Source of the DNA: a virus
Virus genome (UHGV): UHGV-1366990
DNA: 64,000 bases
Strand: one strand, 5' to 3'
Part shown: positions 8,503-58,778 of the stretch, piece by piece
How the letters are laid out: each line of letters opens with the position of its first letter
Numbering within the stretch: the first letter of the stretch is position 1
The notes under the pieces: generated by a model
What the model was told of the DNA's origin: nothing
What the model saw: only the letters and a program-made list of their open reading frames with translations
Databases searched by the model: none
Position numbers and translations under genes: made by a program

Positions 8503-8512
8503 ACTAAATACC
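8503..8512 (+). promoter_or_regulatory. late-promoter-like motif GACTAAATAC
   Basis: Motif family member; 22 nt upstream of ATG 8534. Confidence 0.4.
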
Positions 8513-8533
8513 TTCAAAATTGAGGGTATCGAT

Positions 8534-9184
8534 ATGGCCACTTCTAAATATTTCAACGCCACCAATCACCAAGGCACACAGAAGCTGATTGAAGATTTGG
8601 TACAGGAAATGATTGAGTTGCGCGGGATAGACATCAAGTATATACCCCGTTCCATCGTTGAAAAATTTCCTATCACCAACGATGCCAACCACAGGTTCGA
8701 CCAGGCGTTCGACATCGAAGCGTACATGCAGGATTATCAGGGCTTCAACACCCAGATGTGGGAGAAGTTTGGGGGTATCCAATTGCAAGACGAAGTGACG
8801 TTCTCTATCTCGCGCCGCCGATTTGCCGAGGTGATAGGCAACGGTGTTGGGATTGAACAACAACCTCAGGAAGGTGACCTGATCTATCTACCACTGGCGA
8901 ACAAGATCTTCAAGGTCAACAACCCGAACAACGATGAAGACTTCATGCAATTTGGCAAATGGTATACGTTCTCTCTGCCGTGCACGTTGTTCCAGTACGG
9001 CAACGAAAACTTCGATACGGGCGTTCCGGAGATCGACGATATCGACAAACGTCTGTCCATCTTGGACGAAGAGAACGAACCGGACGTGTACAAGGATTCT
9101 TCTCTACAGACCGACAATGCTTTAGCAGATGATCTTGAGAAGGGGCTTGCAACAGACAAGATGAAGATCGACTTTGGAGAATAA
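8534..9184 (+). CDS. neck/head-completion protein (gp14-like by position)
   Basis: ORF with GAGGG Shine-Dalgarno; position between the gp13-like and gp15-like genes. Confidence 0.5.
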   Translation: MATSKYFNATNHQGTQKLIEDLVQEMIELRGIDIKYIPRSIVEKFPITNDANHRFDQAFDIEAYMQDYQGFNTQMWEKFGGIQLQDEVTFSISRRRFAEVIGNGVGIEQQPQEGDLIYLPLANKIFKVNNPNNDEDFMQFGKWYTFSLPCTLFQYGNENFDTGVPEIDDIDKRLSILDEENEPDVYKDSSLQTDNALADDLEKGLATDKMKIDFGE

Positions 9185-12783: not shown

Positions 12784-12795
12784 TCACTAAATATC
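12784..12795 (+). promoter_or_regulatory. late-promoter-like motif CACTAAATAT
   Basis: Preceded by palindrome GTGATCAC; 40 nt upstream of the sheath ATG. Confidence 0.45.
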
Positions 12796-12835: not shown

Positions 12836-14731
12836 ATGGCAACTCAAAGCTTCAGCGTTGCGCCGTCCGTACAGTGGACTGAGCGTGATGCCACGCTTCA
12901 GACGTCTCCATCCGTTGTTGTTCAGGGTGCGACTGTCGGCAAATTCCAATGGGGTGAAGCAGAACTCCCTGTGTTGGTCACTGGTGGCGAAACTGGTCTG
13001 GTGAAGAAATTCTTCAAGCCAAACGATGCAACTGCCACCGACTTCTTGGTGATTGCTGACTTCCTGTCTTACAGCTCTGTTGCATGGGTGACCCGTGTGG
13101 TCGGTCCGGCGGCACGCAACGCTGTAACCAAAGGTCAGACTGCAATCCTTATCCGCAACAAACTAGACTTCGAAACTGCGTCCCCATCTGCGTCTATTAC
13201 TTGGACAGGCCGCTATGCTGGCTCTCTGGGTAACGACATTGCTGTGAACATCTGTGATGCTGCGCTGTTCCCGACCTGGGAATTTCGTAACAACTTCGCA
13301 TATGCTCCGCAGGCTGGCGAGTACCACATCGCCATCGTTGACAAAGTAGGTCGTATTACCGACTCTTCTGGCGCTGTTAGTCAGGTTGACCGTATCTCTG
13401 TATCCGGTACTGCCACCGCTGCTGGTTCCATCTCTGTTGCTGGTGAAGCCGTGGCGTACACTGACGCTGACACCCCGGCGACTCTGGCGACAAAGATCGG
13501 AACCGCGCTGACGTCTCTGTCTGACGTGTATTCTTCTGTTGTCGTGAAGTCCAACACCGTCACCGTCACCCACAAAGCAATCGGTCCTCAGGCTGCGACT
13601 GCGATTGTTCCAGACGCGAATGGTCTGACTGCTACCGCTGCCGTCACCACTGTTGGTGCTTCCGGTACGATCATCGAGAAGTATGAACTGGTGCAGACCG
13701 CTCAGGGTTCTAAGAAATCTGATGGATCCAATGCGTACTTCAAAGACGTGATCAACGGCACCTCAAATTGGGTGTACACCTTCGCCACTACCCTGGCTGC
13801 TGGTGTCATTGAACTCGAAGGTGGTGTAGACGATTACACTGGGAACCGTGTTGCGGCTATCCAGGCACTGAACAACGCCGAAGCGTATGATGCCAAGCCA
13901 GTGTTCGGTTTCTGTGAAGAACTGATTGAGCAGCAGGCACTGATCGACCTGTCCACCGAGCGTAAAGACACAGTGTCCTTTGTGTCTCCTCTTCGCGATA
14001 CGGTCGTCGGAAACCGTGGCCGTGAGATGGATGATGTTGTGGCCTGGCGTGAAAGCCTTGTTCGCGACTCCTCCTACTTCTTCATGGATGACAACTGGGC
14101 GTATGTGTACGACAAGTACAACGACAAAATGCGTTGGATTCCGGCTTGTGGCGGCACCGCAGGTGTTTGGGCGCGAAGCATTGAAATCGCGGGTATCTAC
14201 AAGTCTCCAGCGTTCCATAACCGTGGTAAATACAACAACTATAATCGAATGGCGTGGTCTGCGTCTTCTGATGAGCGTGCTGTGCTGTATCGCAACCAGA
14301 TCAACAGCATCGTCACCTTCTCCAACGAAGGCATCGTGTTGTACGGCGACAAGACTGGCCTGACCCGCCCATCGGCGTTCGACCGCATCAACGTTCGTGG
14401 TCTGTTCATTATGGCAGAGCAGAATATCGCAGCCATCGCCAAATACTACCTTGGTGAGAACAACGATGCATTCACTCGTGGGTTGTTCAGCAACGCTGTC
14501 CGCCCATATATCCGCCAGTTGGCCAACATGGGCGCGATCTATGACGGGATGGTGAAGTGTGACGAGGACAACAACACCGCTGATGTTATCGCTGCGAACC
14601 AGATGGTCGCGGGTATCTGGCTGAAACCAGAATACTCCATCAACTGGGTGTATCTGGACTTTGCTGCGGTACGTCCGGACATGGAGTTCAGCGAGATCGA
14701 AACTGGCGGTGGCATCGTAGCCGCTTCTTAA
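12836..14731 (+). CDS. tail sheath protein (T4 gp18-like)
   Basis: Shares GKFQWG, YDKYND, RW(I/V)P, FDRINVR and TRG motifs with recalled T4 gp18; ATG at 12836 with AGAAGGA Shine-Dalgarno. Confidence 0.9.
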   Translation: MATQSFSVAPSVQWTERDATLQTSPSVVVQGATVGKFQWGEAELPVLVTGGETGLVKKFFKPNDATATDFLVIADFLSYSSVAWVTRVVGPAARNAVTKGQTAILIRNKLDFETASPSASITWTGRYAGSLGNDIAVNICDAALFPTWEFRNNFAYAPQAGEYHIAIVDKVGRITDSSGAVSQVDRISVSGTATAAGSISVAGEAVAYTDADTPATLATKIGTALTSLSDVYSSVVVKSNTVTVTHKAIGPQAATAIVPDANGLTATAAVTTVGASGTIIEKYELVQTAQGSKKSDGSNAYFKDVINGTSNWVYTFATTLAAGVIELEGGVDDYTGNRVAAIQALNNAEAYDAKPVFGFCEELIEQQALIDLSTERKDTVSFVSPLRDTVVGNRGREMDDVVAWRESLVRDSSYFFMDDNWAYVYDKYNDKMRWIPACGGTAGVWARSIEIAGIYKSPAFHNRGKYNNYNRMAWSASSDERAVLYRNQINSIVTFSNEGIVLYGDKTGLTRPSAFDRINVRGLFIMAEQNIAAIAKYYLGENNDAFTRGLFSNAVRPYIRQLANMGAIYDGMVKCDEDNNTADVIAANQMVAGIWLKPEYSINWVYLDFAAVRPDMEFSEIETGGGIVAAS

Positions 14732-15076: not shown

Positions 15077-15081
15077 CAAGA

Positions 15082-15109
15082 CCCCGCTTCGGCGGGGTTT
15101 TAAATTTTT
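15082..15109 (+). terminator. rho-independent terminator CCCCGC-TTCG-GCGGGG + T-run
   Basis: GC stem with TTCG loop followed by TTTTAAATTTTT. Confidence 0.7.
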
Positions 15110-15131
15110 CCAGATTATTTTATTGAATTAC

Positions 15132-15159
15132 TTTACTTCTTCAATAACTCACGTATAAT
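15132..15159 (+). promoter_or_regulatory. sigma70-like early promoter (TTTACT-16 nt-TATAAT)
   Basis: -35 TTTACT at 15132-15137 and -10 TATAAT at 15154-15159; part of a repeated cassette. Confidence 0.5.
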
Positions 15160-15207
15160 TCTAAACATAAGCAGTACGACACCAACTTGAAACGAAGGAT
15201 CTATATC

Positions 15208-15564
15208 ATGACCAAGACCGAAATTAACGCTATCCTGAAAGAAATCGGCCTCTGTAACCTGAAACGCCGCATCAATCCTTACCAGCCTGCAAAGCCAGTA
15301 CGCGACAGCCAGGGAAAGATGATAAAAGGGATCTACTGTGCAGATGTTGGTCCAATGACGGTGACCAGTCCACACATTGACAGATTTAACGCTATTGTTG
15401 GGGAGTTTTGTGGTAAGGTTCTGGGTAAACTGTCTAATGATTTATGCTCCCCAGATACCAAAGTTGTAGCTTTCGGGAGCCACCTCGTCACCTTCCACCT
15501 CACCACCTTCCGTACCCACGGTGATTATCATGTGTATTATGCTCAGGTTAGCATTCGCAAATAG
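15208..15564 (+). CDS. hypothetical early protein (118 aa)
   Basis: ATG within the conserved AAGGAtCTATATCATG start region; ORF track frame. Confidence 0.55.
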   Translation: MTKTEINAILKEIGLCNLKRRINPYQPAKPVRDSQGKMIKGIYCADVGPMTVTSPHIDRFNAIVGEFCGKVLGKLSNDLCSPDTKVVAFGSHLVTFHLTTFRTHGDYHVYYAQVSIRK

Positions 15565-15570
15565 TAGTTT

Positions 15571-15598
15571 ACCCCGCTGAGGCGGGGTTTTAGTTTTC
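15571..15598. terminator. bidirectional terminator CCCCGC-TGAG-GCGGGG + T-run
   Basis: Between convergent genes 15208..15564 (+) and 15603..15878 (-). Confidence 0.65.
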
Positions 15599-15602
15599 CA
15601 GT

Positions 15603-15950: not shown

Positions 15951-15960
15951 AACTAAATAT
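15951..15960 (+). promoter_or_regulatory. late-promoter-like motif AACTAAATAT
   Basis: 26 nt upstream of the tail tube ATG. Confidence 0.4.
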
Positions 15961-15985: not shown

Positions 15986-16519
15986 ATGGCTACAGTTAAT
16001 GAATTCAGAGCAGCTATGTCACGCGGGGGCGGCGTTCAGCGCCAACACCGTTGGCGTGTGACTGTTAACTTCCCTTCCTTCGTGGCTGGAAGCGATACTA
16101 TCCGTGATGTTTCGCTGTTGGCGGTGACCACAAATACCCCAACAGGCCAGCTCGGGGAAATACTCGTCCCATGGGGTGGTCGTGAACTTCCATTCCCAGG
16201 CGACCGTCGTTTCGAGGCTCTGCCTGTGACGTTCATCAACGTCGTGGACAACGCTCCGTACAACGCATTCGAAGTCTGGCAGCAGTATATCAACGGCAGC
16301 AACAACAACCGTGCGTCTGCTAACCCAGATGATTATTTCCGTGATGTAATCATGGAACTGCTGGATGCTAACGACAACGTCACCAAGACCTGGACCCTTC
16401 AGGGCACCTGGCCTCAGAACCTCGGTCAGCTGGAACTGGACATGTCTGCAATGGACTCTTATACTCAGTTCACTGTTGACCTGCGTTACTTCCAGGCCAT
16501 TTCAGACAAGTCTCTCTAA
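15986..16519 (+). CDS. tail tube protein (T4 gp19-like)
   Basis: C-terminus LQGTWPQNLGQLELDMS...QFTVDLRY resembles recalled T4 gp19 IKGLWPTNVGELQLDWD...TFEVTLALDY. Confidence 0.85.
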   Translation: MATVNEFRAAMSRGGGVQRQHRWRVTVNFPSFVAGSDTIRDVSLLAVTTNTPTGQLGEILVPWGGRELPFPGDRRFEALPVTFINVVDNAPYNAFEVWQQYINGSNNNRASANPDDYFRDVIMELLDANDNVTKTWTLQGTWPQNLGQLELDMSAMDSYTQFTVDLRYFQAISDKSL

Positions 16520-16553: not shown

Positions 16554-16585
16554 ACTAATTACAAGAAAATGTTGAGGACTTAATC

Positions 16586-18280
16586 ATGGCATTCGGTAAT
16601 GGTGCATTCGGAAATGGGTTCTTCGGCTTGTTCGGCAGAGGCGGCAAAGTAGAAGCGCCGATTGATACCGACAAGATGGTCACGAACCAAGAAGAGAAGT
16701 TGCTTTCAAAAGCGACTGTTGTTGCGCTGGACGATTCTCAGGATGGTTCCATCATCCTCCAGGGCGGCGCGAACACATTCAATTTCGTTGGTGTTGAGAA
16801 TGAGTTGCTCAACGTCAAACAGCTGGTCGAAGAGTACCAGTCTATGGCTCAGCAGCCTGAGATTCGTAAGGCTGTGGATATCATTGTCAACGACATCGTC
16901 ACCTGTGAAGAGGAAGAGACTCCTGTAACCATCAACCTGGAAAAGGTGGATGGCGTCACAAACGAAGTCAAAGAGAAGATCACTGACGCATTCAAAGAGA
17001 TCATGCATCTCCTTGACTTTGACAACACGGCGTATCAGAAGATCCGCAAATGGTATATTGAAGGCCGTCAGGCATTCCACGTTGTGGTGGACCCGAAGAA
17101 CAAGAAAGCGGGTATCGCCAAACTCATCATGATGGACTCACGCTGTATCCGTCCTGTATACATCGTTCAAAAGGCGATGCGCGACGGTATCGAAGTCATC
17201 AATGACGTAAAACTTCAATACTACTACAACCCGAACTACAACCGCAACCAATTCACTGGCCAGTCCGGAACGTCTCAGAACTTCCAACCGTCACAGCAAG
17301 AGCTGGTGTTTGATGATGAGAGCATAGTGTATCTGGACAGTGGTGAAGAGCCTCTGGCGAATGGGGTTGTGCCAAGCCTGCTGAACCCAGCTATCCGTCC
17401 CCTGAACAACCTTGTTACAACTGAAGATGCAACGGTGATCTATGCGATCACACGTGCTCCTGAGAAGCGAGCGTTCTATCTCGACGTGGGTACGCTGGGT
17501 AAGAAGTCGGCCGAAGAATACATGCAAGCCATGATGGGCAAATTCAAGAACCGTCTGGCGTATGATCGCACCACTGGTAAGGTGGCTGGTAACACTCATT
17601 TGATGGGCATCGCTGAGGACTACTGGTTACCACGTCGCGAAGGGCAGAACGCAACCGAGATCTCCAACGTAGGCGGTGGCGATCAACTGGGTCAAATGGA
17701 TCATGTGGTATACTTCCGCGAGAAGCTCTACGAGGCTCTGATGATCCCTAAGAGCCGCCTGCAAGAGGAAGGTTCCATCAACATCGGTGGTTCCAATCTT
17801 GCTGAAATCACACAGGAAGAACTGCGCTTCAACAAGTTCTGTGCGAGCCTGCGCCGTCGTTATTCTTCTGGTATCTTCCTGGAACTTCTGCGCCGTCAAC
17901 TGATATTGAAAGGCATTACAGATCAGGCTGACTGGAATGAGAAGATCAAGCCGTTCGTCAAGTTCGAATTCACTTCTGACAGCTTCATCCGTGAACAACA
18001 AGAGAACGAAATCTTGTCACAGCGTATGGCGGCTCTCGGTCAGATCGAACCATATATCGGCACTCTCTTCTCTATCGATTTTGCTCAACGCAATTTGCTG
18101 CGTATGTCCGATGAAGACATCAAAGACCAGCAAGAGAAGATCGCGAAAGAGAAGAAAGAAGGCAAATACCCTGAAGTGCAGGCAGATGAGTCCGGCGGCT
18201 TCGGCAGCGGGGAAGTCAGTCCACTGAAATTCAGACCTAACGTCATCCCAGCGACTAACCCTCCTGGTGGTGAAGAATAA
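16586..18280 (+). CDS. portal protein (T4 gp20-like)
   Basis: 564 aa in the gp20 position between tube and prohead core genes; GAGGA Shine-Dalgarno. Confidence 0.8.
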   Translation: MAFGNGAFGNGFFGLFGRGGKVEAPIDTDKMVTNQEEKLLSKATVVALDDSQDGSIILQGGANTFNFVGVENELLNVKQLVEEYQSMAQQPEIRKAVDIIVNDIVTCEEEETPVTINLEKVDGVTNEVKEKITDAFKEIMHLLDFDNTAYQKIRKWYIEGRQAFHVVVDPKNKKAGIAKLIMMDSRCIRPVYIVQKAMRDGIEVINDVKLQYYYNPNYNRNQFTGQSGTSQNFQPSQQELVFDDESIVYLDSGEEPLANGVVPSLLNPAIRPLNNLVTTEDATVIYAITRAPEKRAFYLDVGTLGKKSAEEYMQAMMGKFKNRLAYDRTTGKVAGNTHLMGIAEDYWLPRREGQNATEISNVGGGDQLGQMDHVVYFREKLYEALMIPKSRLQEEGSINIGGSNLAEITQEELRFNKFCASLRRRYSSGIFLELLRRQLILKGITDQADWNEKIKPFVKFEFTSDSFIREQQENEILSQRMAALGQIEPYIGTLFSIDFAQRNLLRMSDEDIKDQQEKIAKEKKEGKYPEVQADESGGFGSGEVSPLKFRPNVIPATNPPGGEE

Positions 18281-18311
18281 TTCGACTAAGTATAGAAAAC
18301 ATTTAGAGGAT

Positions 18312-18488
18312 ATGAACATGGCTGCTATCGATCTGGTAAAAGCAATCATCGCTGGTGATACTGATGCCGCTGCTGCTGAATGCGAAATGGAGCTATCCGC
18401 TCGCGCCCAAGAACTGGTCCAGCAGGGTACTGAATATGTCTTGAACTCCCTGAGCCAAGACATGGGTCCTTTCGGCGACGACCAGTAA
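18312..18488 (+). CDS. small acidic prohead-core-like protein (gp67 position)
   Basis: ATG after AGAGGA; 58 aa acidic; synteny only. Confidence 0.35.
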   Translation: MNMAAIDLVKAIIAGDTDAAAAECEMELSARAQELVQQGTEYVLNSLSQDMGPFGDDQ

Positions 18489-19490: not shown

Positions 19491-19501
19491 TCACTAAATA
19501 C
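19491..19501 (+). promoter_or_regulatory. late-promoter-like motif TCACTAAATAC
   Basis: Follows the 14-nt perfect palindrome GGCTGAATTCAGCC; 27 nt upstream of the scaffold ATG. Confidence 0.45.
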
Positions 19502-19527: not shown

Positions 19528-20382
19528 ATGAAACCTGAATTGCAAAAACTGTTTGAGGGCGTTAACGGCCTCAGCACCGACTTCCTGGATAAAGTGTCTG
19601 GTCTGCTGGAATCTAAAGTAGAAGCCGCTCGCCTGACCGCTATTCAAGAAACCGAAAACGCTGCCAATATTGAGCGCCTGCGTCTGGTTGAAGCTCATCA
19701 GGCTGAGATTGCTCAGCTGAAAGAGTCTCACTTGATGGAAATCGCGACCAAAGTCGATGGCTTCCTGAATGCTGTTGTAGAAGAGTGGGCTAACAAGAAC
19801 GCTCCTGCAATCGATGCTCAGATCAAACGTGAAGCGGCTGAAAATCTGCTGACTGGCCTGACTGGTGTTCTGAAAGAAGCTGGTATCAACTTTGCCACCG
19901 ACGAAAACGGCCAGATCGCTGCGCTGACTGCCCGCCTGACCGAAGCAGAACGACGTGCTGCGATTGCCGAAAGCGAAAACCGTCAAATCAAAGAAGCCGC
20001 GAATGCGACTCTGCGTGACTCTGTGATCGCCCGTATCTGTGAAGGTATGGTCGACACCAAGAAAGCAACGGTTGTCAATCTGCTGGAAGCTGTGCAGTTC
20101 ACCACCGAAAGCGAATTCGCTTCCCGCGTACACACCTTCCGCAACCTGGTAGAAGGTAAGTCCGTGAAGAAAGAAGGCGATGACGATGACGATGACTTCC
20201 AGGACAAAGTCGGCGGAAAAGACGGCGATGACGACAACAAAGATGTTAAAGTCGAAGAAGGCAAAAAGTCTAAGAAAGAAGGCGATGAAGATGACGATGA
20301 AGATGAAACAGACAAAGAGCTGAAAGAATCTATCAAGCGTCAGTTAGCCGACTATAATCGTCGCTTCGGCATCAACGGCTAA
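19528..20382 (+). CDS. prohead scaffold protein (gp22 position)
   Basis: Ala/Glu-rich with poly-Asp/Glu tail (KEGDDDDDDF...DEDDDEDE); synteny. Confidence 0.7.
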   Translation: MKPELQKLFEGVNGLSTDFLDKVSGLLESKVEAARLTAIQETENAANIERLRLVEAHQAEIAQLKESHLMEIATKVDGFLNAVVEEWANKNAPAIDAQIKREAAENLLTGLTGVLKEAGINFATDENGQIAALTARLTEAERRAAIAESENRQIKEAANATLRDSVIARICEGMVDTKKATVVNLLEAVQFTTESEFASRVHTFRNLVEGKSVKKEGDDDDDDFQDKVGGKDGDDDNKDVKVEEGKKSKKEGDEDDDEDETDKELKESIKRQLADYNRRFGING

Positions 20383-20395
20383 TTTTAGCAGCCAC

Positions 20396-20419
20396 AGCCC
20401 TCGAAAGGGGGCTTGATTT
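20396..20419 (+). terminator. GNRA-loop hairpin AGCCCTC-GAAA-GGGGGCT + TGATTTT (attenuator-like)
   Basis: 7-bp stem with one GU pair between the scaffold and capsid genes. Confidence 0.35.
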
Positions 20420-20473
20420 TGAACTACTAAGTAATTTCAACTTAACTGAATATCAATGTAAGGAATGACCATC

Positions 20474-21796
20474 ATGGCTAAGAAACTTGTTACCGAACAA
20501 ATGCGCGAGCAGTGGCTGCCAGTTCTTCAGAAAGAATCTGAAAGCATCCAGCCGCTTTCTGCCGAAAACGTTGCCGTCCGTCTGCTGCAAAACCAGGCTG
20601 AGTGGAACGCCAAAAACCTGGGCGAATCCGACGCTCCTGGCTCCGTGAACGCCTCTGTGGGCAAATGGCAGCCAGTCCTGATCGACATGGCCAAACGTCT
20701 GGCTCCGGTCAACATCGCGATGGACTTCTTCGGTGTTCAGCCGCTGTCTGGTCCTGACGGTCAGATCTTCGCACTGCGTGCTCGCCAGGGCGTTGCAGAC
20801 GGCTCCAACACTGCCCAGTCCCGCGCTGAGCTGTTCATGAACGAAGCCAACTCCGGTTACTCCGGTGACGACACTGCACAGGCTGGCGACCCATCTGGCT
20901 TCTCCCAGACTGAGATCGAAGGTTCCGGCGCTGCTACCACCACCATCGGTAAAGGTATGTCAACTGCCGACGCTGAACTGCTGGGCACCACCACCAACCC
21001 ATGGGCACGTGTTGGTATCACCGTTCAGAAAGCAACCGTGACTGCGAAGTCTCGCGGCCTGTACGCTGACTACAGCCACGAACTGCGCCAGGACATGATG
21101 GCGATCCACGGCGAAGACGTTGACAGCATCCTGTCCGACGTGATGGTAACTGAAATTCAGGCAGAGATGAACCGTGAGTTTATCCGCACCATGAACTTCA
21201 GCGCAGTACGCTTCAAAAAATTCGGCACCAACGGTATCGTAGACATCTCCACTGACATCTCCGGTCGTTGGGCGCTGGAAAAATGGAAGTACATGACTTT
21301 CATGCTGGAAGTTGAAGCGAACGGCATCGGTGTTGACACCCGTCGTGGTAAAGGCAACCGTGTTCTGTGTTCTCCGAACGTAGCGTCTGCCCTGGCGATG
21401 TCCGGCATGCTGGATTATGCTCCGGCACTGCAGGAAAACACCAAGCTGGCGATTGATCCGACTGGCCAGACCTTCGCTGGTGTGCTGTCTAACGGTATGC
21501 GTGTCTACATCGACCCGTATGCAGTAGCAGAATACATCACCCTGGCATACAAAGGCGCAACCGCGCTGGACGCTGGTATCTTCTTCGCACCGTATGTGCC
21601 GCTGGAAATGTACCGCACCCAGGGTGAAACCACCTTCGCACCACGTATGGCGTTCAAGACCCGCTACGGGATTTGTGCTAACCCATTCGTTCAGATCCCA
21701 GCGAACCAGGATCCACAGGTCTATGTGACTGCGGATGGTATCGCCAAGGACACCAACGTGTACTTCCGTAAAGGGCTGATCAAAGGCCTGTTCTAA
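20474..21796 (+). CDS. major capsid protein (T4 gp23-like)
   Basis: FGVQPLSGPDGQIFALRA, AGVLSNGMRVYIDPYA, FKTRYGI align with recalled T4 gp23; ATG at 20474 with AAGGA (20465 is an alternative start). Confidence 0.9.
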   Translation: MAKKLVTEQMREQWLPVLQKESESIQPLSAENVAVRLLQNQAEWNAKNLGESDAPGSVNASVGKWQPVLIDMAKRLAPVNIAMDFFGVQPLSGPDGQIFALRARQGVADGSNTAQSRAELFMNEANSGYSGDDTAQAGDPSGFSQTEIEGSGAATTTIGKGMSTADAELLGTTTNPWARVGITVQKATVTAKSRGLYADYSHELRQDMMAIHGEDVDSILSDVMVTEIQAEMNREFIRTMNFSAVRFKKFGTNGIVDISTDISGRWALEKWKYMTFMLEVEANGIGVDTRRGKGNRVLCSPNVASALAMSGMLDYAPALQENTKLAIDPTGQTFAGVLSNGMRVYIDPYAVAEYITLAYKGATALDAGIFFAPYVPLEMYRTQGETTFAPRMAFKTRYGICANPFVQIPANQDPQVYVTADGIAKDTNVYFRKGLIKGLF

Positions 21797-21823: not shown

Positions 21824-21848
21824 ACCCCGCTTCGGCGGGGTTTTTATT
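21824..21848 (+). terminator. rho-independent terminator CCCCGC-TTCG-GCGGGG-TTTTT
   Basis: Same hairpin type as at 15082; directly after the capsid gene. Confidence 0.75.
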
Positions 21849-21900
21849 TGTTCATATTATCGAACAGGTTATACTAGATACCATATGGAGGAGAATAATT

Positions 21901-23373
21901 ATGTATCAGGTAATCTGTAGTGTCTGCCATGAACAGTTCAAAGCATCCAGGAAAGATAAGAAATTTTGTTCAGATGCTTGCAAGACCTTCGCATCGAACA
22001 CCCTAAAGAACCTCCCGGAAGGTTTCCTTGAAGCAGTGAATGAATTGTCTGACGAGGAATCATATCGCCAATTTTTCTACAAATATATGTTTACCAAGAA
22101 CAACAAATTGGATATCCAAAAATGCAAATCTGAACTGCTTATGAAGCACATCAATGTAGACCTTTTAGCGTTCGCCAATACCCACAACACCCTACAAGAT
22201 TTGGCTTGTAAAGTCACAGCTTGGCTGTACAATAGAACCGTGAAAATATGCCCGGTGTGTTCCAAGGAAACCAACTTTTATATCAATAATAAAGATTACA
22301 GAACATATTGTTCTGAAGAATGTTATCAGGTTTCTATGTGTAAAGGTGGGATTGGTCGGAAAGCCATAGAGACTTCGAATATATCCAAATACGGGAGCTG
22401 CTCCACACTACAATTACCTGGTGTGAGGGAGAAGGCGTTGGCAACGTTACAAGAACGTTATGGTGTTGACAACCCTATGAAAAACTCGAACATACTAAAA
22501 CGTGCGTTGTTCAGCAATGGTTCTATCAGGAACAAGAAATCTTCTTATGAAAAGGAAATATCCGAGTTTCTCACCTCAATGGGAGTTGTAAACACTGTTT
22601 CTGATTACAGTATATTATCCGGTAAACAACTGGATATCTATTGCCCTGAACACAAATTGGCGATTGAATTTAATGGTCTGTACTGGCATTCAGAAGTTTT
22701 TAAAGAGAAACATTATCACCTGGAAAAGACTGAAATATGTGAATCTCAGGGTATCCAGTTGGTCCACATCTGGGAAGATGAATGGGTTGAGAAACAGGAA
22801 GTGGTCAAATCTCTTCTGAAAGCTAAACTTGGCATTAAAACGCCTGCGTCATATGCTCGCCAACACAAAGTCGTTTGGGGGAATATAAGCGGCTTGAGGG
22901 AGTTTTTAGACAACCACCACATACAAGGTTCCGTTTCTTCCACCCACCATTTATCGTTAATTGACAAGAGTGGGGTCATACAAGCCGTGATGCTATTCAC
23001 TAAAAGGAAAGATGGCCTGGAATTAGTCAGATTTGCCTCTAATGATTGCCACGGAGCATTCAGTAAACTTCTTTCACACTTCAGAAGAAAATTTGCCGGC
23101 ACCAAAATCTATTCCTTTGGGGATAGGTGTGTTGTAAGCAGGTTGTCCAACATTTACCTATCCCACGGATTCGTAGAAGAGGAAGTACAGAAGCCAGACT
23201 ACAAATATCACAAGCCTGGCACATTTATGCGTGAGCACAAATTCGGTTTCAGAAAAGGTTCATTTGCTCGCATGGGGTATGACGTAGAAGGCAAAACAGA
23301 AAGCCAGTTAGCAACCGAAGCCGGGCTGGTCAGGATTTGGAATTGTGGACTGATCAAATATGTCTTGAACTAA
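21901..23373 (+). CDS. freestanding homing endonuclease, Vsr-like PD-(D/E)xK type with N-terminal zinc ribbons
   Basis: Repeated CxxC pairs at the N-terminus; core LDIYCPEHKLAIEFNGLYWH matches the Vsr/DUF559-type signature; GGAGGAG Shine-Dalgarno; inserted after the capsid gene. Confidence 0.6.
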   Translation: MYQVICSVCHEQFKASRKDKKFCSDACKTFASNTLKNLPEGFLEAVNELSDEESYRQFFYKYMFTKNNKLDIQKCKSELLMKHINVDLLAFANTHNTLQDLACKVTAWLYNRTVKICPVCSKETNFYINNKDYRTYCSEECYQVSMCKGGIGRKAIETSNISKYGSCSTLQLPGVREKALATLQERYGVDNPMKNSNILKRALFSNGSIRNKKSSYEKEISEFLTSMGVVNTVSDYSILSGKQLDIYCPEHKLAIEFNGLYWHSEVFKEKHYHLEKTEICESQGIQLVHIWEDEWVEKQEVVKSLLKAKLGIKTPASYARQHKVVWGNISGLREFLDNHHIQGSVSSTHHLSLIDKSGVIQAVMLFTKRKDGLELVRFASNDCHGAFSKLLSHFRRKFAGTKIYSFGDRCVVSRLSNIYLSHGFVEEEVQKPDYKYHKPGTFMREHKFGFRKGSFARMGYDVEGKTESQLATEAGLVRIWNCGLIKYVLN

Positions 23374-23436: not shown

Positions 23437-23661
23437 ATGTACCTGAAAAAGACTGTGAAGAAGCCGAAAGGTGATGTTGTCGAGGTGTGCCTTATTGAGG
23501 CTTATGTTGACTCCTGGAATAACGAGCAGCGCTACTTCATGGTCAACACATTGGTGTATGTGCCAGCCTCTCACTTGAACCGTGATTTCATCACAACCGA
23601 GAACATCGTCCGCTGGGAGATTGCAACGCAGTCCGATATCGACGAACACAACATTCTTTGA
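23437..23661 (+). CDS. hypothetical protein (74 aa)
   Basis: Internal ATG of ORF 23407..23661 with GAGGG upstream. Confidence 0.4.
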   Translation: MYLKKTVKKPKGDVVEVCLIEAYVDSWNNEQRYFMVNTLVYVPASHLNRDFITTENIVRWEIATQSDIDEHNIL

Positions 23662-23678
23662 AAGGAAGAATCTATATC

Positions 23679-24122
23679 ATGTGTGATAAGAATTTCATTT
23701 TCATTAGTCCCGCCAAGAAACAGTTCTTCCATAGCTCCGTTGGGGACAAGGTGGAAGGTTTCCGTAAACTCAAAGATTATCGCCTGGCATGCGGTGATGT
23801 TGATTTTCAGAGCTTCGACAATGATCGCCAGGATTTGAACGATGAGGGTTGGACAGAAGTTCCATCCCCACAGTTTATCGACGTCAAGCTGTACTACATG
23901 AAGGACAGTGGGAAGTATTATTCAGAGGGTGTGATCAAAATCAACCGTGGGGAGGCCGAGGCCGAACCTGCTAAGTCCTGGATGGAGACTATGGATAAAA
24001 TCCGCTATCTGCTTGACTCAGGCAATTTGCCTGGTTTGGTTAAAGGTGCCCGGTATGAGGTCTTCGTGACCGGAGAAGGGCATCCAGGTGGGTATCCGGC
24101 GGTATTCCGCGTTAACAACTGA
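23679..24122 (+). CDS. hypothetical early protein (147 aa)
   Basis: ATG in the conserved AAGGAAGAATCTATATCATG start region. Confidence 0.55.
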   Translation: MCDKNFIFISPAKKQFFHSSVGDKVEGFRKLKDYRLACGDVDFQSFDNDRQDLNDEGWTEVPSPQFIDVKLYYMKDSGKYYSEGVIKINRGEAEAEPAKSWMETMDKIRYLLDSGNLPGLVKGARYEVFVTGEGHPGGYPAVFRVNN

Positions 24123-24393: not shown

Positions 24394-24421
24394 TTTACTT
24401 CTTCAATAAACCCCGTATACT
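24394..24421 (+). promoter_or_regulatory. sigma70-like early promoter (TTTACT-16 nt-TATACT) inside a hairpin cassette
   Basis: The -35 lies in the loop of ACGGGGT...ACCCCGT; same architecture as the cassettes at 15132 and 58291. Confidence 0.5.
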
Positions 24422-24470
24422 TCATTCCATAAGCAGCACAACACTGACTCTGAAATGAAGGAACTATATC

Positions 24471-24788
24471 ATGAACACTCCAAAAATCTCTATCTGGGCT
24501 TTCGACGAATTCACCGCATTTGACGCTCTGATTGCTACTCTGGGTTGTGCTCCTCAGGAAGCGGAAGACGATTACTCCCGCACTAACAAAGTCAAGATGG
24601 TGAACACCACTCACGATTTCAAACACGACCTGAACTCCTTCTTGGACGTTTTGGCTACCACCCTGCCAGAAGCTGACATGGCAACTGTGCGCGGCTCTAT
24701 CTTTAAGAAGAACGGCGAAATGCGCAAGTTAGCGGGTAAAGAAGTGAAATTCGCCGCCGACGGTTTCTTCATCACCATTGAATTCTGA
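24471..24788 (+). CDS. hypothetical early protein (105 aa)
   Basis: ATG in the conserved GAAGGAACTATATCATG start region. Confidence 0.55.
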   Translation: MNTPKISIWAFDEFTAFDALIATLGCAPQEAEDDYSRTNKVKMVNTTHDFKHDLNSFLDVLATTLPEADMATVRGSIFKKNGEMRKLAGKEVKFAADGFFITIEF

Positions 24789-25974: not shown

Positions 25975-26015
25975 CATATCATAAATAATTTGAGTACACA
26001 CAGCGGAGATACATC

Positions 26016-26186
26016 ATGTTTGTCGTCATCAATCTGTTCTGTTACATCTTCACGGCGTACTTCTTGGGCGCGGTAGGGATCGAGACATACAATGATCTGA
26101 AGGATGGGGAATACGCCAACCGAATGGTTTATGTCAAGAAGTTTGTTCGTAAGTTCTGGTCCAACTTCGTTTACAAACTACCATGA
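26016..26186 (+). CDS. small membrane protein (56 aa)
   Basis: GGAG Shine-Dalgarno; one hydrophobic helix; below the ORF-track cutoff. Confidence 0.35.
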   Translation: MFVVINLFCYIFTAYFLGAVGIETYNDLKDGEYANRMVYVKKFVRKFWSNFVYKLP

Positions 26187-26188: not shown

Positions 26189-26215
26189 CCTAAATACCCC
26201 CATCATACATGGGGG
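26189..26215 (+). promoter_or_regulatory. late-promoter-like motif CCCTAAATACC fused to hairpin CCCCC-N9-GGGGG
   Basis: Motif overlaps the 5' arm of the hairpin; the GGGGG arm is the only Shine-Dalgarno candidate for the ATG at 26225. Confidence 0.4.
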
Positions 26216-26224
26216 TATTTTCTT

Positions 26225-26953
26225 ATGAACGCACAGATCTATGACGCCCTATCACAGGGCAACGCCTTTACCAATCCTCTCCCGTCCCTCAGCAGCGCCT
26301 CACAGGGGTTAATCACCAGTGGTAAGGCGACTACAGCGTCACTGGCTAACACCGGAAATGCGCAGATTCAGGAAGCGCTGACGGCAGGTGGGTTGACTAC
26401 AGCCAAACTCAACGAATCTACAGCAATGTTCAACTCAGCCAACAACAGCATCACTACTTTGAACAACTATGGCGACCAGTCAGTGAACGAGGCATATTCC
26501 CGCATCGGTACATCTGTGTCGTATAAGTCCGCCCTGAAGTCTATAGGTCGAGAACCGAACAACTGTGATCTGATCAATAATGCATTTGGGATTATTCAGA
26601 ACCTCGGCAAACAGTGGATCAACACCATGCAAAGTGTTCTCACAACTATCACAAACAAGATGAATGAGCTGGCTGAGTTGGTAGCTCAGGGTGTCAGTGC
26701 TGGTCTTGATGCTATTCGGGCACTGGCTGCTGAAGTTACTCAGGCCATCGACACTGCTGTCGCATCAGTAGCCTCTATTGCTCAGGACATCACGAACGGT
26801 ATTGCAGCAGAGTTAGCCCATATCCAAGACATGGTTGGTAAGTGTCTTAACTTCTCTTTTGCCAACGTGATATCAGAGTGGGCGAAAGATATCTGCGCCG
26901 GAGGTGTCATCAACAGCATCGGTTCCGATAATCTGAAGAACGCACTGAAGTAA
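26225..26953 (+). CDS. hypothetical Ser/Thr/Asn/Ala-rich late protein (242 aa)
   Basis: ATG at 26225 downstream of the late motif; low-complexity composition suggests a structural or fibrous protein. Confidence 0.5.
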   Translation: MNAQIYDALSQGNAFTNPLPSLSSASQGLITSGKATTASLANTGNAQIQEALTAGGLTTAKLNESTAMFNSANNSITTLNNYGDQSVNEAYSRIGTSVSYKSALKSIGREPNNCDLINNAFGIIQNLGKQWINTMQSVLTTITNKMNELAELVAQGVSAGLDAIRALAAEVTQAIDTAVASVASIAQDITNGIAAELAHIQDMVGKCLNFSFANVISEWAKDICAGGVINSIGSDNLKNALK

Positions 26954-28643: not shown

Positions 28644-29390
28644 ATGGCATCTCTCCAAGATCTACGCAAGCTGAATGACTTCGAAAACCGTCATTACACA
28701 TTCCAGCAATACGAACTTCCTCATAAGGAACTGGAGTGTGTTACGACGGAGAATGGTCGTCATTACGTTTCACCGTCTGGTGTAAAACTGACATCCGTCA
28801 CGACTATGCTGGGACGCACTGGAGATCATGAATGGCTTGAGTCTTGGAGGAAGAAGCTGGGCGCAGAGGCCGCTGATCTTGAGACCATGCGCTGTGCTGA
28901 CCGAGGGGAGAAGCTGCACCTTGCTTGTGAACTGTATCTAAAGAACCGCCCAATGAAAGAAGTGTTGGAAGCGGCTGGCGAATACATGTTCATGTTCAAG
29001 CAGCTGTTCCCTTACCTGAACAAGATGACAAAGATCTATGCTCAGGAGATCCCATTATATAGCGAGGTGCTTGGTCTTGCAGGTCGTGTAGACCTTATCG
29101 GGGTTTATGAGGGTAAACCTGCTGTCATCGACTTCAAGACATCGAACACCATGAAGACGCGGGGCATGATCGAGGATTACAGTATTCAGCTGTGCTTATA
29201 TTCGGTCATGTTCCAGCAGATGTTCGGCGTCAAGATCACCCGCCTCATCAACGTGATTGCCAACGAGTCTTCCCCTCTACCAACCGTCATTGAGTTCAAC
29301 CGTGATGACATTCTGACTAAGATGTTTGAGCGTGTTCGTCTGTATCATCGCATGGATAAAGAACAAAACGGAGTCTGGCCGGATCACTAA
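28644..29390 (+). CDS. RecB-family PD-(D/E)xK nuclease
   Basis: GRVDLIG...VIDFKTS (D...D/ExK) followed by QLCLY (QhxxY). Confidence 0.5.
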   Translation: MASLQDLRKLNDFENRHYTFQQYELPHKELECVTTENGRHYVSPSGVKLTSVTTMLGRTGDHEWLESWRKKLGAEAADLETMRCADRGEKLHLACELYLKNRPMKEVLEAAGEYMFMFKQLFPYLNKMTKIYAQEIPLYSEVLGLAGRVDLIGVYEGKPAVIDFKTSNTMKTRGMIEDYSIQLCLYSVMFQQMFGVKITRLINVIANESSPLPTVIEFNRDDILTKMFERVRLYHRMDKEQNGVWPDH

Positions 29391-29395
29391 ATACC
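29384..29395 (+). promoter_or_regulatory. late-promoter-like motif TCACTAAATACC
   Basis: 24 nt upstream of the helicase ATG at 29419. Confidence 0.4.
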
Positions 29396-29418: not shown

Positions 29419-30927
29419 ATGGCAGACATTCAGATTGTTAAGGTTAACGAAGTCCGCATGCGTTGCATCGCAGATCTTTCTATCAGGGAAGAACTTAATG
29501 ACTACTTCAAATTCGAAGACCCGAACTTCGTTCCCAACCCCTTCTCTAAATGGGACGGGGTTGTCCGCCTATTTACCAAGTCATCTGGTCTAATCGATAT
29601 CGGTCTGCTGTTTGAGGTATTTAAGTTCTGTAAGAACAACGGATACACCATTGAACTGGATCCGGCACTGAAGTACATTCAGGACATCCCAGATGAAGAA
29701 ATCCGTGAATTCATCGACAGCCTGCATCCAAAGATCCGTACCGAAAATCACGAATATATCGATGCCGAGACTCGTGACTACCAGTACGACACCATCGCCA
29801 AGGCTATGCGTCAAACCAGATGCGTCTGTGAACTGGCTACGAGTGCCGGTAAGTCCTTTATTCTGTATGTCATGGCGCGGTACTACAGGCGGCGCAGAGA
29901 AGCTCTCGAAAGTCCTCTGAAGACGCTTATCGTGGTGCCGTCAATCCACCTAGTCACTCAGCTGTACGACAACTTCGAAGAGTATGCGCATGGCAGTGAT
30001 TGGAAGCCCGTTGTTAACACCCAGCTGATTTTTGAGGGCGCGACAAAGGAGATCAGTAAACCAATCGTCATCAGCACATGGCAGGGCATTCAAGACCAGT
30101 CGAAGGAATGGTTCCACCAGTTCGGCGATATCGTGGTGGATGAAGTGCACACCTCCAAGTCTGAGAAACTGTCTTACATCCTGAACAACTGCATCTATGC
30201 CGACCAGCGCCTGGGGGTTACAGGTACGCTGGCGAACACCAAAGTTGCCGGGCTTCAGGTGGTGGCTCACTTCGGGGCGTACCATAAGATCATCACGGCT
30301 CGCGATCTTATCAATCTCGGGTACGCCACTGACATCAAAGTGAAGATGATTCAGCTGAAGCACACTCCGGCGGATGCTGTTGGTCTAGACGGGGATTATT
30401 CCAAGGAAATAGAATACCTTATTACACACCAGTCCCGCAACGAACTGATCGCCAAGATGGCACTGAATCTGAAAGGGAACGTGGCCATCATGTTCGAGCG
30501 TATTGACGCCCACATGATGGTTGTGTACGATATGCTGAGCGCAGTCAAGCCCAACGTGTTTGTCATCAACGGGGAAGTGAAGATCGAAGACCGCCGCCGC
30601 ATACAGAAAGCGATGGAGGATGGAGAAGATATCACGTTGTTGGCTTCATACGGGACAATGCAACAGGGTGTGTCAATCAAGAAGCTACACCACCTTGTAC
30701 TGGCACACCCGAGCAAGTCATATATCCGTGTCATACAGACATTGGGTCGTCTGATGCGTCAGCACTCCTCTAAGGACGTCGCGTGGATATGGGACTTAGT
30801 GGATGATGCATCGTACAACGCCAGCACGAACCACGCTCTCAGGCACTCTCATGAACGTTACAAGTTTTACCTGGCAGAGCGCCACCCCGTGGAGTTCATG
30901 AAGGTGGCGCTGGGCAATCACGATTAA
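29419..30927 (+). CDS. SF2 DNA helicase (DExH)
   Basis: Walker A ATSAGKS, Walker B VVDEVH, C-terminal helicase motifs; ATG is residue 32 of ORF 29326. Confidence 0.8.
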   Translation: MADIQIVKVNEVRMRCIADLSIREELNDYFKFEDPNFVPNPFSKWDGVVRLFTKSSGLIDIGLLFEVFKFCKNNGYTIELDPALKYIQDIPDEEIREFIDSLHPKIRTENHEYIDAETRDYQYDTIAKAMRQTRCVCELATSAGKSFILYVMARYYRRRREALESPLKTLIVVPSIHLVTQLYDNFEEYAHGSDWKPVVNTQLIFEGATKEISKPIVISTWQGIQDQSKEWFHQFGDIVVDEVHTSKSEKLSYILNNCIYADQRLGVTGTLANTKVAGLQVVAHFGAYHKIITARDLINLGYATDIKVKMIQLKHTPADAVGLDGDYSKEIEYLITHQSRNELIAKMALNLKGNVAIMFERIDAHMMVVYDMLSAVKPNVFVINGEVKIEDRRRIQKAMEDGEDITLLASYGTMQQGVSIKKLHHLVLAHPSKSYIRVIQTLGRLMRQHSSKDVAWIWDLVDDASYNASTNHALRHSHERYKFYLAERHPVEFMKVALGNHD

Positions 30928-31656: not shown

Positions 31657-32325
31657 ATGCAAGAGATCACTCTCTCCGAACGTACACTTCAGTTGCTGGC
31701 CAACTTTGAGACCATCAACCCATCTATCGTTCTGACACCGGGCAAGATGCTGCGCAGTATTAATGATTCTTCTACTGTGATCGCCGTGGCGCAGATCGAA
31801 GAAGACTTCCCGTTTGAGTTCCCGATTCTGGACCTGACCAAACTTCTGGCCATCCAGCGCCTACCTTCCTTCAAAGGTGCCAAAGCCGAATTCCATCAGG
31901 ACTACATCCTGTTGAAAGGCGAAAGCTCTCAGCTGCAATTCTGGCGTTCTGCTAAAGAACTCACTGTTGTTCCGGCTGACACCATTGAACTGCCGTCTGT
32001 TGACTTTGAAGCGATCATCACTCCAGAGAAGATGAAAGAACTGACCCGCGCCTGCTCTACCCTCGGACACAAGACTGTGCGTCTGGTTGCTCAGGGTGGC
32101 AAAACTCGCCTGGTTGCAACCACCACTACCCTGGACAACTCCAACAACTACACTGTTGAGCTGGGCGAAACCGCGCTGCCGGACTTCGTAATGCCGCTGG
32201 ATGTTGCCAACCTGAAAATGATCGAAGGCAACTACACTCTGCGTGCATGTGCTGATCTACAGATGGTGAACTTCCAATCATCAGACGCGACGATCAATTA
32301 CTTCGTCGGCGCACAGATTGAGTAA
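31657..32325 (+). CDS. sliding clamp (T4 gp45-like)
   Basis: N-terminus LQLLANFETINPSIVL resembles recalled T4 gp45 LLKNFATINSGIML; followed by clamp loader as in T4. Confidence 0.8.
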   Translation: MQEITLSERTLQLLANFETINPSIVLTPGKMLRSINDSSTVIAVAQIEEDFPFEFPILDLTKLLAIQRLPSFKGAKAEFHQDYILLKGESSQLQFWRSAKELTVVPADTIELPSVDFEAIITPEKMKELTRACSTLGHKTVRLVAQGGKTRLVATTTTLDNSNNYTVELGETALPDFVMPLDVANLKMIEGNYTLRACADLQMVNFQSSDATINYFVGAQIE

Positions 32326-43852: not shown

Positions 43853-43911
43853 TTCTATAACTTTGGGCGGGGTATGATTACCCCGTCTATTTGAAACCAA
43901 GAGACTATATC

Positions 43912-44286
43912 ATGAAAAAGTTAATCCTCGCTGTTGCCCTGCTGGGCGCTTCCTTTGCTGCTGTTTCCGCCCCTCCTGTCATCACCGGAGTGTCTACCAA
44001 CGGTGTTTATGCTTTCAAGGCGTATGGCCAAGACCTCGTTCTGTATAAGAACGGGAAGATGATTGAGCGCTGCGTATCAGACGACGTGAATCGTGGGATC
44101 GACAATCAGGGTAGCCCATACGTCCTGGACATCTATTCCTGCTCCAACGGGACGAAGTCCTTTGGCGTCAAGACCTTTGGCAACGTCGCCGACGGTGGCT
44201 GGGGCTTCATGTTCGAAACCCGCAACCACCACCCGGTCAAGACCATGCAAGAAGAGTTCTTGATCTCTGTCGGGGGTACGTTATGA
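43912..44286 (+). CDS. exported protein with signal peptide (124 aa)
   Basis: MKKLILAVALLGASFAAVSA-PP: signal peptide with AxA site; conserved start region. Confidence 0.6.
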   Translation: MKKLILAVALLGASFAAVSAPPVITGVSTNGVYAFKAYGQDLVLYKNGKMIERCVSDDVNRGIDNQGSPYVLDIYSCSNGTKSFGVKTFGNVADGGWGFMFETRNHHPVKTMQEEFLISVGGTL

Positions 44287-51971: not shown

Positions 51972-52700
51972 ATGGGAATGAACTTCGTGGACAGAGGGGA
52001 GAATGTCGTCAAATATTTCACGGACGAAGACAACGAGCGTGTCATTAGTATCCTTCGTGATTGGATCCCTGCTCGCAAGAAAGCACTTGCTGAGGGCACC
52101 AGGCTTCCAAAGATCCCCAACTATGTTGCTCTGCAGGTCCAGCGCATCATCACCAAGATGAGTACCCGCTACAACTATCGCGATTATCCCTTCCGTGAAG
52201 ACATGGTCTCTGAAGCAATCGTCAACATCCTGCGTTACCTCCACACATTTGACGTCGACCACATCGGTAAGAAAGGGAAGATCAACTTCTTTTCTTGGGT
52301 GACCATGTGTGCTGATCGCTCATTTGCCCGTAAACTGAACATCGAAGAAGAGCACACGTACATTAAATTGCGCTCATTTGAAGAGGCGGGTGGGTTCGCA
52401 GGCCTGGCAGACGATCCCGACTTCCAACAAGAGATCTTTGTTGATGCTACAGGAATTGGCATGGACTTCCGTGAACGTATCGGCAACTTTGAGAACAAAA
52501 AGGACGCTCAAAGGCAAAAGGAGCGAGAGAAGGTGGAGGCGGCTCGTCTCGCAGAATCGAATAAAAAGATTGCGAAAGGCATACTTCAATACATGGCGCA
52601 GGCTAAGAATACGACACCAGCGCAGGCCGAAGAAAATTTAGATCAGGACTTCGGCAATACCCAATTCGGCCTAGACGAAACCGAAGGAGAAACAGAATAA
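51972..52700 (+). CDS. late-transcription sigma factor (T4 gp55-like)
   Basis: Central region shows recalled gp55-like spacing; sits next to gp47/gp46 as in T4. Confidence 0.55.
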   Translation: MGMNFVDRGENVVKYFTDEDNERVISILRDWIPARKKALAEGTRLPKIPNYVALQVQRIITKMSTRYNYRDYPFREDMVSEAIVNILRYLHTFDVDHIGKKGKINFFSWVTMCADRSFARKLNIEEEHTYIKLRSFEEAGGFAGLADDPDFQQEIFVDATGIGMDFRERIGNFENKKDAQRQKEREKVEAARLAESNKKIAKGILQYMAQAKNTTPAQAEENLDQDFGNTQFGLDETEGETE

Positions 52701-56911: not shown

Positions 56912-56920
56912 GGCTGAAGG

Positions 56921-56950
56921 GCACTAAATACCACGTGCCCTTTATCTTTT
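56921..56950 (+). promoter_or_regulatory. hairpin GGGCACG...CGTGCCC with GCACTAAATACC late motif in the loop, then T-rich tract
   Basis: Composite terminator and late-promoter-like element; about 80 nt upstream of the SLT gene. Confidence 0.4.
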
Positions 56951-57007
56951 AACCCCTGTCAGGAGGCTCAAGCGAGCTGCAAGTCGACAAACATAAGGAA
57001 CGCCATC

Positions 57008-58272: not shown

Positions 58273-58292
58273 AAAAGGGGCTTTTGCCCCTT
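58273..58292 (+). terminator. terminator AGGGGC-TTTT-GCCCCT
   Basis: Hairpin whose 3' flank TTTACTTC is the -35 of the next promoter. Confidence 0.6.
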
Positions 58293-58319
58293 TACTTCTT
58301 CAATATCCTTCCCTATACT
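58291..58319 (+). promoter_or_regulatory. sigma70-like early promoter (TTTACT-17 nt-TATACT)
   Basis: Downstream leader CATAAGCAGTACGACACCAACTTGAA is identical to the leader at 15167-15192. Confidence 0.5.
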
Positions 58320-58367
58320 TCATTCCATAAGCAGTACGACACCAACTTGAATAGCAGGAACTATATC

Positions 58368-58703: not shown

Positions 58704-58778
58704 GATAAGGGGGCTGACGCTCCCTTTTGGTTTCGCTAATTAGAAGAAACCGCCGTTAATTCAGTCAGGAGATATAAA

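Follow-up and report, generated by a model that had tools for sequence, protein, structure and literature searches.

The 7-mer CTAAATA, together with single-base variants of it, very probably serves the phage studied here as its late promoter, a −10-type element read by a gp55-RNA polymerase and located, at many of its copies, in or beside predicted hairpins. The window that we analyzed, a stretch of 64,000 nt given as one strand 5′ to 3′, comes from UHGV virus genome UHGV-1366990, and by its sequence relationships the phage is a Vi1-like member of the Ackermannviridae. The 4-kb stretch around positions 19491–19501, which read TCACTAAATAC, is 99% identical to Escherichia phage vB_EcoM-ZQ1, ~98.5% identical to phage AV101, and 89% identical to Dickeya phage LIMEstone1; fainter matches are to Salmonella, Klebsiella, Serratia, and Erwinia phages, all of them Ackermannviridae, and the window is 89–99% identical to Aglimvirinae phages. 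The gene order, taken from AV101 and LIMEstone1, begins with tailspike, VriC-like, neck, terminase, sheath, tube, portal, prohead protease, scaffold, and capsid genes, continues with small genes, gp3, UvsY, UvsW, clamp and clamp loader, regA, and genes of replication and nucleotide metabolism, and ends with RNase H, gp55, gp47/46, and a second structural gene group. We compared the corresponding regions of genomes from five further genera: Limestonevirus LIMEstone1, Kuttervirus Matapan, Taipeivirus 0507-KN2-1 and Menlow, Nezavisimistyvirus phiEa2809, and Miltonvirus 3M. Two contigs deposited as "Enterococcus phage Efm 3-10" (OR844944.1 and OR844945.1) also match this enterobacterial phage, with 80–87% identity at window positions 15131–15211 and about 44.7–48.0 kb, and may be mislabeled or contaminating.

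Motif copies and the genes behind them

CTAAATA occurs 11 times in the window, always on the + strand, against an expected 4.0, and none of 100 shuffles reached 11; ACTAAATA occurs 7 times, likewise only on the + strand, against an expected 1.0 (0/100 shuffles reached 7). Nine of the 11 exact copies lie close to genes (1992, 8504, 12787, 15953, 19494, 26190, 29387, 56924, and 62406) and are either intergenic or overlap the upstream stop codon, and the remaining two (8544 and 57510) fall within coding sequence. By an overlap criterion, 8 of the 11 are in non-coding DNA, which accounts for 7.4% of the window according to our own rough ORF calls from a simple ORF picker (88 ORFs); the binomial P is 1e-7. 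When 7-mers were ranked with no prior motif in the windows from −60 to −9 (52 nt) before these 88 called ORFs, CTAAATA was the top-ranked enriched sequence (P = 2e-7). Outside the core, the preceding base is mostly A and the following base is a pyrimidine at every site, as the preliminary description had proposed, and conservation does not extend further upstream, the information content of the nine sites being ~0 beyond 2 nt upstream. Over the 6 nt that follow the core, A+T makes up ~48% at the nine sites, which is not above the genome level, and several sites are C-rich there. Intergenic canonical CTAAATA is missing from the replication/nucleotide-metabolism block at 31–56 kb. The exact T4 octamer, TATAAATA, was considered as the box in use and rejected: its single copy, on the − strand, is at chance level, so this exact box is not used by the phage.

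At the nine gene-proximal sites, the motif ends 23–42 nt before a + strand start codon at eight and 77 nt before one at 56924. The scaffold gene gp22 (19528–20382) is preceded at 27 nt by the motif at 19494–19500 (tcaCTAAATAc); LIMEstone1 has an identical site, marked there as a putative late promoter, and the motif is conserved in six genera. In the tail and neck region, all on the + strand, the motif at 1992–1998 stands 35 nt before the large VriC-like structural gene (2034–6872), with a late promoter annotated at the LIMEstone1 orthologue; that at 8504–8510 stands 23 nt before the neck gene gp14 (8534–9184) and is present in five of six genera; that at 12787–12793, which shares bases with the stop codon of the terminase gene, is 42 nt from the start of the sheath gene gp18 (12836–14731) and carries a late promoter annotation in LIMEstone1; and that at 15953–15959 lies 26 nt before the tail tube gene gp19 (15986–16519), its orthologues being CTAATTA in LIMEstone1, Matapan, and 0507-KN2-1. 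Also on the + strand are the copies at 26190–26196, before the DUF7217 structural gene (26225–26953); at 29387–29393, with CCCC right behind it and the start of the UvsW helicase gene (29419–30927) 25 nt away; at 56924–56930, before gene 57008–57622 (phrog_600, called RegB in some relatives), whose LIMEstone1 orthologue has a late promoter annotation at this site; and at 62406–62412, 32 nt before the DUF5856 gene (62445–62798), where LIMEstone1 annotates a late promoter and Matapan a terminator. The sites listed in the preliminary description are real, some of its positions being off by 1–4 nt and three of them (26225, 29419, and 62445) being gene starts. As for the two + strand copies in coding sequence, that at 8544–8550 is read within gp14 as the codons TCT AAA TAT and is probably not a promoter, and that at 57510–57516, in coding sequence 57008–57622, is probably a chance copy.

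The single-base variants CTAATTA, CTAAGTA, and ATAAATA occupy the same position before other + strand genes. CTAATTA had been described before the portal gene gp20 (16586–18280) and is indeed found there, at 16555–16561, 24 nt from the start codon and right after a G/C-rich hairpin; the site is CTAATTA in four genera and CTAAATA in phiEa2809 and 3M. The same variant is present at 58736–58742, 36 nt before a 975-aa gene (58779–61706), again as CTAATTA in four genera and CTAAATA in 3M and phiEa2809, and at 61748–61754, 26 nt before the structural gene 61781–62350, where Matapan has CTAAATA and LIMEstone1 has ATAAATA with a late promoter annotation. CTAAGTA precedes the small gene after the portal gene (site 18286–18292, gene about 18318–18488; CTAAATA in Matapan and 3M) and, at 20427–20433, stands 40 nt before the major capsid gene gp23 (20474–21796). 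ATAAATA at 25981–25987 lies 28 nt before a 56-aa ORF (26016–26186) and is annotated as a late promoter in LIMEstone1. The variant site at 58736–58743 reads CTAATTAG, which is its own reverse complement and therefore also scores on the − strand; in the LIMEstone1 record, some TAAATA/TATTTA palindromes are marked as late promoters on both strands.

Nearly every genome compared has the 7-mer or a variant, equally far from the start codon, upstream of the orthologues of VriC, gp14, sheath, tube, portal, the small post-portal gene, gp22, capsid, DUF7217, and UvsW; with the structural genes at 58–62 kb included, such conservation extends to as many as six genera. The intergenic sequence around these conserved motifs is often unalignable, its flanks having diverged; the region upstream of gp3 lacks the motif in every compared genome. 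Because the portal, tube, and 58736 sites are CTAATTA in some genera and canonical CTAAATA in others, and the capsid site alternates between CTAAGTA and CTAAATA, position 5 tolerates A, T, or G. This bears on the capsid gene, which had been described as having only a diverged motif and as possibly co-transcribed from the scaffold promoter. The diverged CTAAGTA is present in four genera, and since its orthologue is CTAAATA in phiEa2809 and 3M, a variant promoter is likelier than a mere remnant; as judged from this comparison, transcription of the capsid gene most likely begins at a variant promoter of its own and not solely by read-through from the scaffold promoter, although co-transcription from the latter may also occur. 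Counts, strand bias, and orthologous conservation in six genera together support the proposal of a late promoter family before structural genes.

Hairpins that contain or adjoin the motif

The hairpin at 26192–26220 was examined in most detail. Folding gives a 12-bp stem, AAATACCCCCAT / ATGGGGGTATTT, at −19.5 kcal/mol; its 5′ arm consists of the AAATA of the motif followed by CCCCCAT, and its 3′ arm, ATGGGGGTATTT, carries the sole Shine-Dalgarno candidate for the ATG at 26225 and is followed by TCTT and a T-rich tail. The helix is found in all six genera with differing stems (CCCCCAT/ATGGGGG, CCCCCA/TGGGGG, CCCCTGA/TCAGGGG, and CCCTCAC/GTGGGGG), and in the six-sequence alignment, a small sample, 98.6% of cells are paired and three pairs show compensatory changes; the covariation score is matched by none of 500 shuffles and disappears when the partners are shifted. 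LIMEstone1 has both a promoter and a terminator annotated in this region, the terminator overlapping the gene start, and Matapan has an annotated terminator containing the ribosome-binding site. Folding and compensatory changes support the earlier description of a hairpin that overlaps this motif copy and has the Shine-Dalgarno sequence as its 3′ arm. In AV101 the DUF7217 gene is given a start codon at 26183 (ATG), so that promoter and hairpin fall within the gene. The protein read from 26183 enters the Pfam model only at residue 15, PHROG 2114 matches the 242-aa version end to end, and LIMEstone1 and Matapan start the gene at the equivalent of 26225; from these comparisons, 26225 is the better call.

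Weaker pairings of this kind are predicted at two further sites. At 29387, the run of C behind the motif is able to pair with TGGGAG, the Shine-Dalgarno sequence of the UvsW gene, and this pairing is kept in four genera with changes on both sides. At 8509–8528, CCTTCAA pairs with the Shine-Dalgarno sequence TTGAGGG of gp14; this hairpin occurs only in the window and Matapan, and we therefore do not count it as evidence. Of the motif copies in the window, only those at 26190 and 29387 carry the cCcc tail (CTAAATACCCC), and in both cases the tail pairs with a G-rich Shine-Dalgarno sequence. Since the tail appears only where such pairing occurs, it may be an anti-Shine-Dalgarno arm lying outside the promoter, a small point that may be new.

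Two other copies sit in the loops of terminator-like hairpins, as the preliminary description had stated and as folding agrees. At 56915–56944, a 10-bp hairpin, TGAAGGGCAC / GTGCCCTTTA, encloses the motif in its loop, TAAATACCAC, and is followed by a T-rich tail. At 62398–62423, the hairpin GGATCCCCCT-AAATAC-AGGGGGATTT precedes CTTTTTC, with CTAAATA spanning the 5′ arm and the loop, and this is the top-ranked terminator-like site of its region in a terminator scan. Both are near-invariant in the four genera that have them and so do not lend themselves to a covariation test. The scan missed the hairpins at 26192 and 56915 because of its loop limit of 8 nt and because its T-window is placed after the maximal stem; these two are called from folding and from how related genomes are annotated. 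Between the 56915–56944 hairpin and the ATG at 57008, the leader 56945–57007 reads TTAACCCCTGTCAGGAGGCTCAAGCGAGCTGCAAGTCGACAAACATAAGGAACGCCATC and contains GGAGG; it is almost identical in four genera, above the conservation of the flanking coding sequence, and may be an autoregulatory leader of the phrog_600 gene.

Elsewhere the motif follows a hairpin, either directly (16555, 58736, and 61748) or ~13–25 nt downstream of one (1992 and 20427). The hairpin with a GNRA loop reported between the scaffold and capsid genes folds as described, at 20396–20413 on the + strand, as AGCCCTC-GAAA-GGGGGCT followed by TGATTTTGAA; it is terminator-like, and its stem is conserved in six genera. The terminator-like hairpin at 58707–58726 directly precedes the 58736 motif, its stem sequence being genus-specific and its pairing kept in six genera, and at 61748 the hairpin GCCCC-TCTG-GGGGC runs at its 3′ end straight into CTAATTA. 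Folding and conservation together support the idea, put forward with the first description of these sites, of compact terminator-promoter units.

A separate strong terminator, ACCCCGCTTCGGCGGGGTTTT, is present in three copies (15081–15110, 15571–15600, and 21824–21853) that flank small or inserted ORFs, including a 490-aa ORF (21901–23373) that occupies the place of the LIMEstone1 homing endonuclease.

Candidate reader, alternative explanations, and proposed mechanism

The presumed reader of the motif is encoded at 51972–52700 on the + strand, as the preliminary description had noted in likening the motif, whose TAAATA core is common to T4, to the T4 late promoter. This gp55 homologue matches phrog_234, "late sigma transcription factor," at E = 1.1e-51 and is annotated gp55 in AV101; Pfam and PDB sequence searches with the gp55 candidate gave no match. 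The T4 sliding clamp is an activator of late transcription, and a gp45 sliding-clamp homologue is encoded at 31657–32325 on the + strand, with a weak match to Pfam gp45-slide_C (E = 0.002, below the curated cut-off) and an orthologue annotated as sliding clamp in AV101, LIMEstone1, and Matapan. The third component, gp33, is absent from the 64-kb window and has been reported in the family members AG3 and CBA120 (PMC3121705, PMC3184105). The lack of gp33 in the window, the downstream sequence that is not A/T-rich, and the two exact copies in coding sequence count against a late promoter.

The genes downstream of the motif are mostly virion structural. UvsW, a late gene in T4, the RegB-like gene, and the 56-aa ORF are not counted among them. 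According to the GenBank notes for LIMEstone1, mass spectrometry confirmed as structural proteins the products of the orthologous genes served by 1992, 8504, 12787, 15953, 26190, 61748, and 62406.

We considered whether the motif instead acts as RNA, CUAAAUA being a processing or cleavage signal or a leader element and the nearby 5′ ends being processed rather than primary. It would lie in transcribed leaders, 23–77 nt before start codons and often beside RNA hairpins, and a gene called RegB in some relatives is encoded here; yet the T4 RegB cleavage site is GGAG, not CTAAATA, no Rfam family matched anywhere in the window, and the core is the same as the late-promoter core of T4 and of Aeromonas phage Aeh1 at an equal distance from genes. 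With gp55 encoded in the window, and with a motif found mostly at structural genes and missing from the early/middle block at 31–56 kb, we regard an RNA signal as very unlikely.

Equally improbable, in our judgment, is recognition as the −10 element of the host sigma-70 polymerase, or of a modified early or middle form of it, in place of gp55. TAAATA shares three of six positions with TATAAT, and before the VriC-like gene a sigma-70-like TTCTAT-N14-TATACT at 1968–1993 overlaps the late motif (tataCTAAATA). Against this, no −35-like conservation was seen upstream of the nine CTAAATA sites, no sigma-70-type hexamer pair was called at a motif site in a scan of 15–30 kb and 56–63 kb, the genes served are mostly structural, and a distinct motif of the TTCAAT-N14-TATAAT type is enriched before other genes: allowing ≤2 mismatches, TTCAAT[N14]TATAAT has 17 matches in the window, 14 of them on the + strand, against 4.3 expected. 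The whole 1968–1998 stretch is conserved in Matapan and may be a dual early/late promoter.

TTCAAT[N14]TATAAT, the other published Ackermannviridae motif, is also included in a ~80-nt cassette repeated at 15132–15212, 24394–24473, and 58292–58372, with partial copies at 23658–23681 and 43891–43914. The cassette, TTTACTTCTTCAATAAC...TATAAT...CATAAGCAGTACGACACCAACTTGAA...CTATATCATG, ends at the start codon of small genes; its sequence suggests an early or middle promoter followed by a conserved leader, and it resembles the mobile promoter-stem-loop cassettes of T4-type phages.

Least credible of all is that the copies are functionless by-products of A/T-rich intergenic composition and terminator A-tracts (AAATA/TATTT), for which the G+C content of non-coding DNA (44%, vs. 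about 49% for the whole window) and the pairing of the motif's AAATA with the TATTT of the terminator tail at 26190 could be cited, since non-coding base composition predicts 0.56 CTAAATA copies per strand as opposed to the 8 on the + and 0 on the − strand observed, such pairing is missing at most sites, and the 7-mer is kept in six genera while its neighbors change.

Returning to the gp55-dependent late promoter, we propose that host RNA polymerase with phage gp55 recognizes the motif without a −35 element, probably, as happens in T4, with gp33 and the gp45 clamp assisting, and that the promoter tolerates the variants CTAATTA, CTAAGTA, and A/TTAAATA. By analogy with T4 and Aeh1 (motif at −12 to −6), transcription would start ~6 nt after the last A, giving leaders of ~15–40 nt, mostly before virion structural genes. 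A late RNA that begins inside a hairpin cannot form it, and in computed folding of truncated RNAs that start 7 nt after the motif the helices are lost. The hairpin-associated copies fall into three arrangements. In the first, seen at 26190 and 29387 and with less clarity at 8504, the motif is followed by the predicted 5′ arm of a hairpin and the Shine-Dalgarno sequence is the 3′ arm, so that read-through RNA would fold and be terminated or untranslatable; the late RNA, starting inside the hairpin without its 5′ arm, would be translated. At 56924 and 62406, with the motif in a terminator loop, transcripts from upstream would stop, and late transcripts would begin in the 3′ arm and escape termination. 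In the third arrangement the motif follows the hairpin (16555, 58736, and 61748 directly; 1992 and 20427 at the longer spacing given above). A broader reading, which we hold only tentatively and rate at a little under even, is that these elements constitute an Ackermannviridae-wide two-state switch packed into 30–40 nt, which silences or stops early and middle read-through and launches late RNA, with cCcc acting as an anti-Shine-Dalgarno arm and not as part of the promoter.

Relation to known systems and significance

Neither the motif nor its reading as a late promoter nor hairpin gating as a principle is new; all are found in the literature or in public annotation. The motif was reportedly first described by Adriaenssens et al. 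in 2012. That work is cited for a "known late gene promoter" in a later paper, and the EspM4VN paper lists two "unique regulatory motifs" for this phage group, CTAAATAcCcc being one (PMC7283392). In the LIMEstone1 record, TAAATA carries the label "putative late promoter" at nearly all of the orthologous sites, 19494 included, with VriC, gp14, sheath, tube, gp22, DUF7217, UvsW, and the 58–62 kb structural genes among the orthologues so marked, and the LIMEstone1 paper predicted 33 late promoters by T4 similarity (PMC3296691). Previously, the CBA120 paper (2011) had described the late promoter sequence of the ViI family as then unidentified (PMC3184105), and the AG3 paper had searched for TATAAATA with one mismatch allowed (PMC3121705), which misses ACTAAATA because two positions differ. 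The Ackermannviridae element and that of the window are the same 7-mer, in the same family and at the same orthologous positions; the published 11-mer with its cCcc tail, however, fits only 26190 and 29387, whereas the general element of the window is a 7-mer with a variable position 5. A full-text literature search for CTAAATAC returned unrelated primer sequences only, the literature searched held no Ackermannviridae study in which transcription start sites had been mapped, and the accessible portions of the Ackermannviridae motif literature yielded no discussion of the hairpin context.

Outside the family, the nearest likeness is to T4, whose late promoter TATAAATA, served by gp55, gp33, and the gp45 clamp, shares with the window the TAAATA core, the lack of a −35 element, and a position just upstream of late structural genes. 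The T4 late box lies at −13 to −6 (PMC1524935). The two differ upstream of the core, where T4 has TA and the window (A)C, and downstream of it, where T4 shows a marked A/T preponderance (PMC2988020) and the window is not A/T-rich. Aeromonas phage Aeh1, which belongs to another lineage, that of T4-like Aeromonas phages, has a predicted late promoter CTAAATA starting at −12, which its authors link to a divergent gp55 (Nolan et al. 2006, PMC1524935); this is the identical 7-mer, upstream of orthologues of T4 late genes, and it is likewise a prediction.

The gating proposed for 26190 and 29387 has its precedent in T4 e, soc, 49, and I-TevI: there a helix hides the ribosome-binding site, its 5′ strand is encoded by the late promoter region, and late transcripts, which start within the helix, are translated (PMC3014915). 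The same geometry is predicted from sequence at our two sites. Unlike in T4, the candidate gated genes are those for the DUF7217 virion protein and UvsW, the hairpin in the window also resembles an intrinsic terminator, and two more sites carry the motif in a terminator loop.

For the annotation and engineering of Vi1-like phages, which serve as reporter and biocontrol phages, these results offer a reliable placement rule for late promoters that applies across the family, CTAA[A/T/G]TA at ~20–45 nt before the start codon, in place of the published 11-mer, which is too narrow. While adding no new principle, the hairpin-embedded copies would show a T4 mode of regulation at work in another phage family, at a virion gene and at the UvsW gene, which is useful detail.
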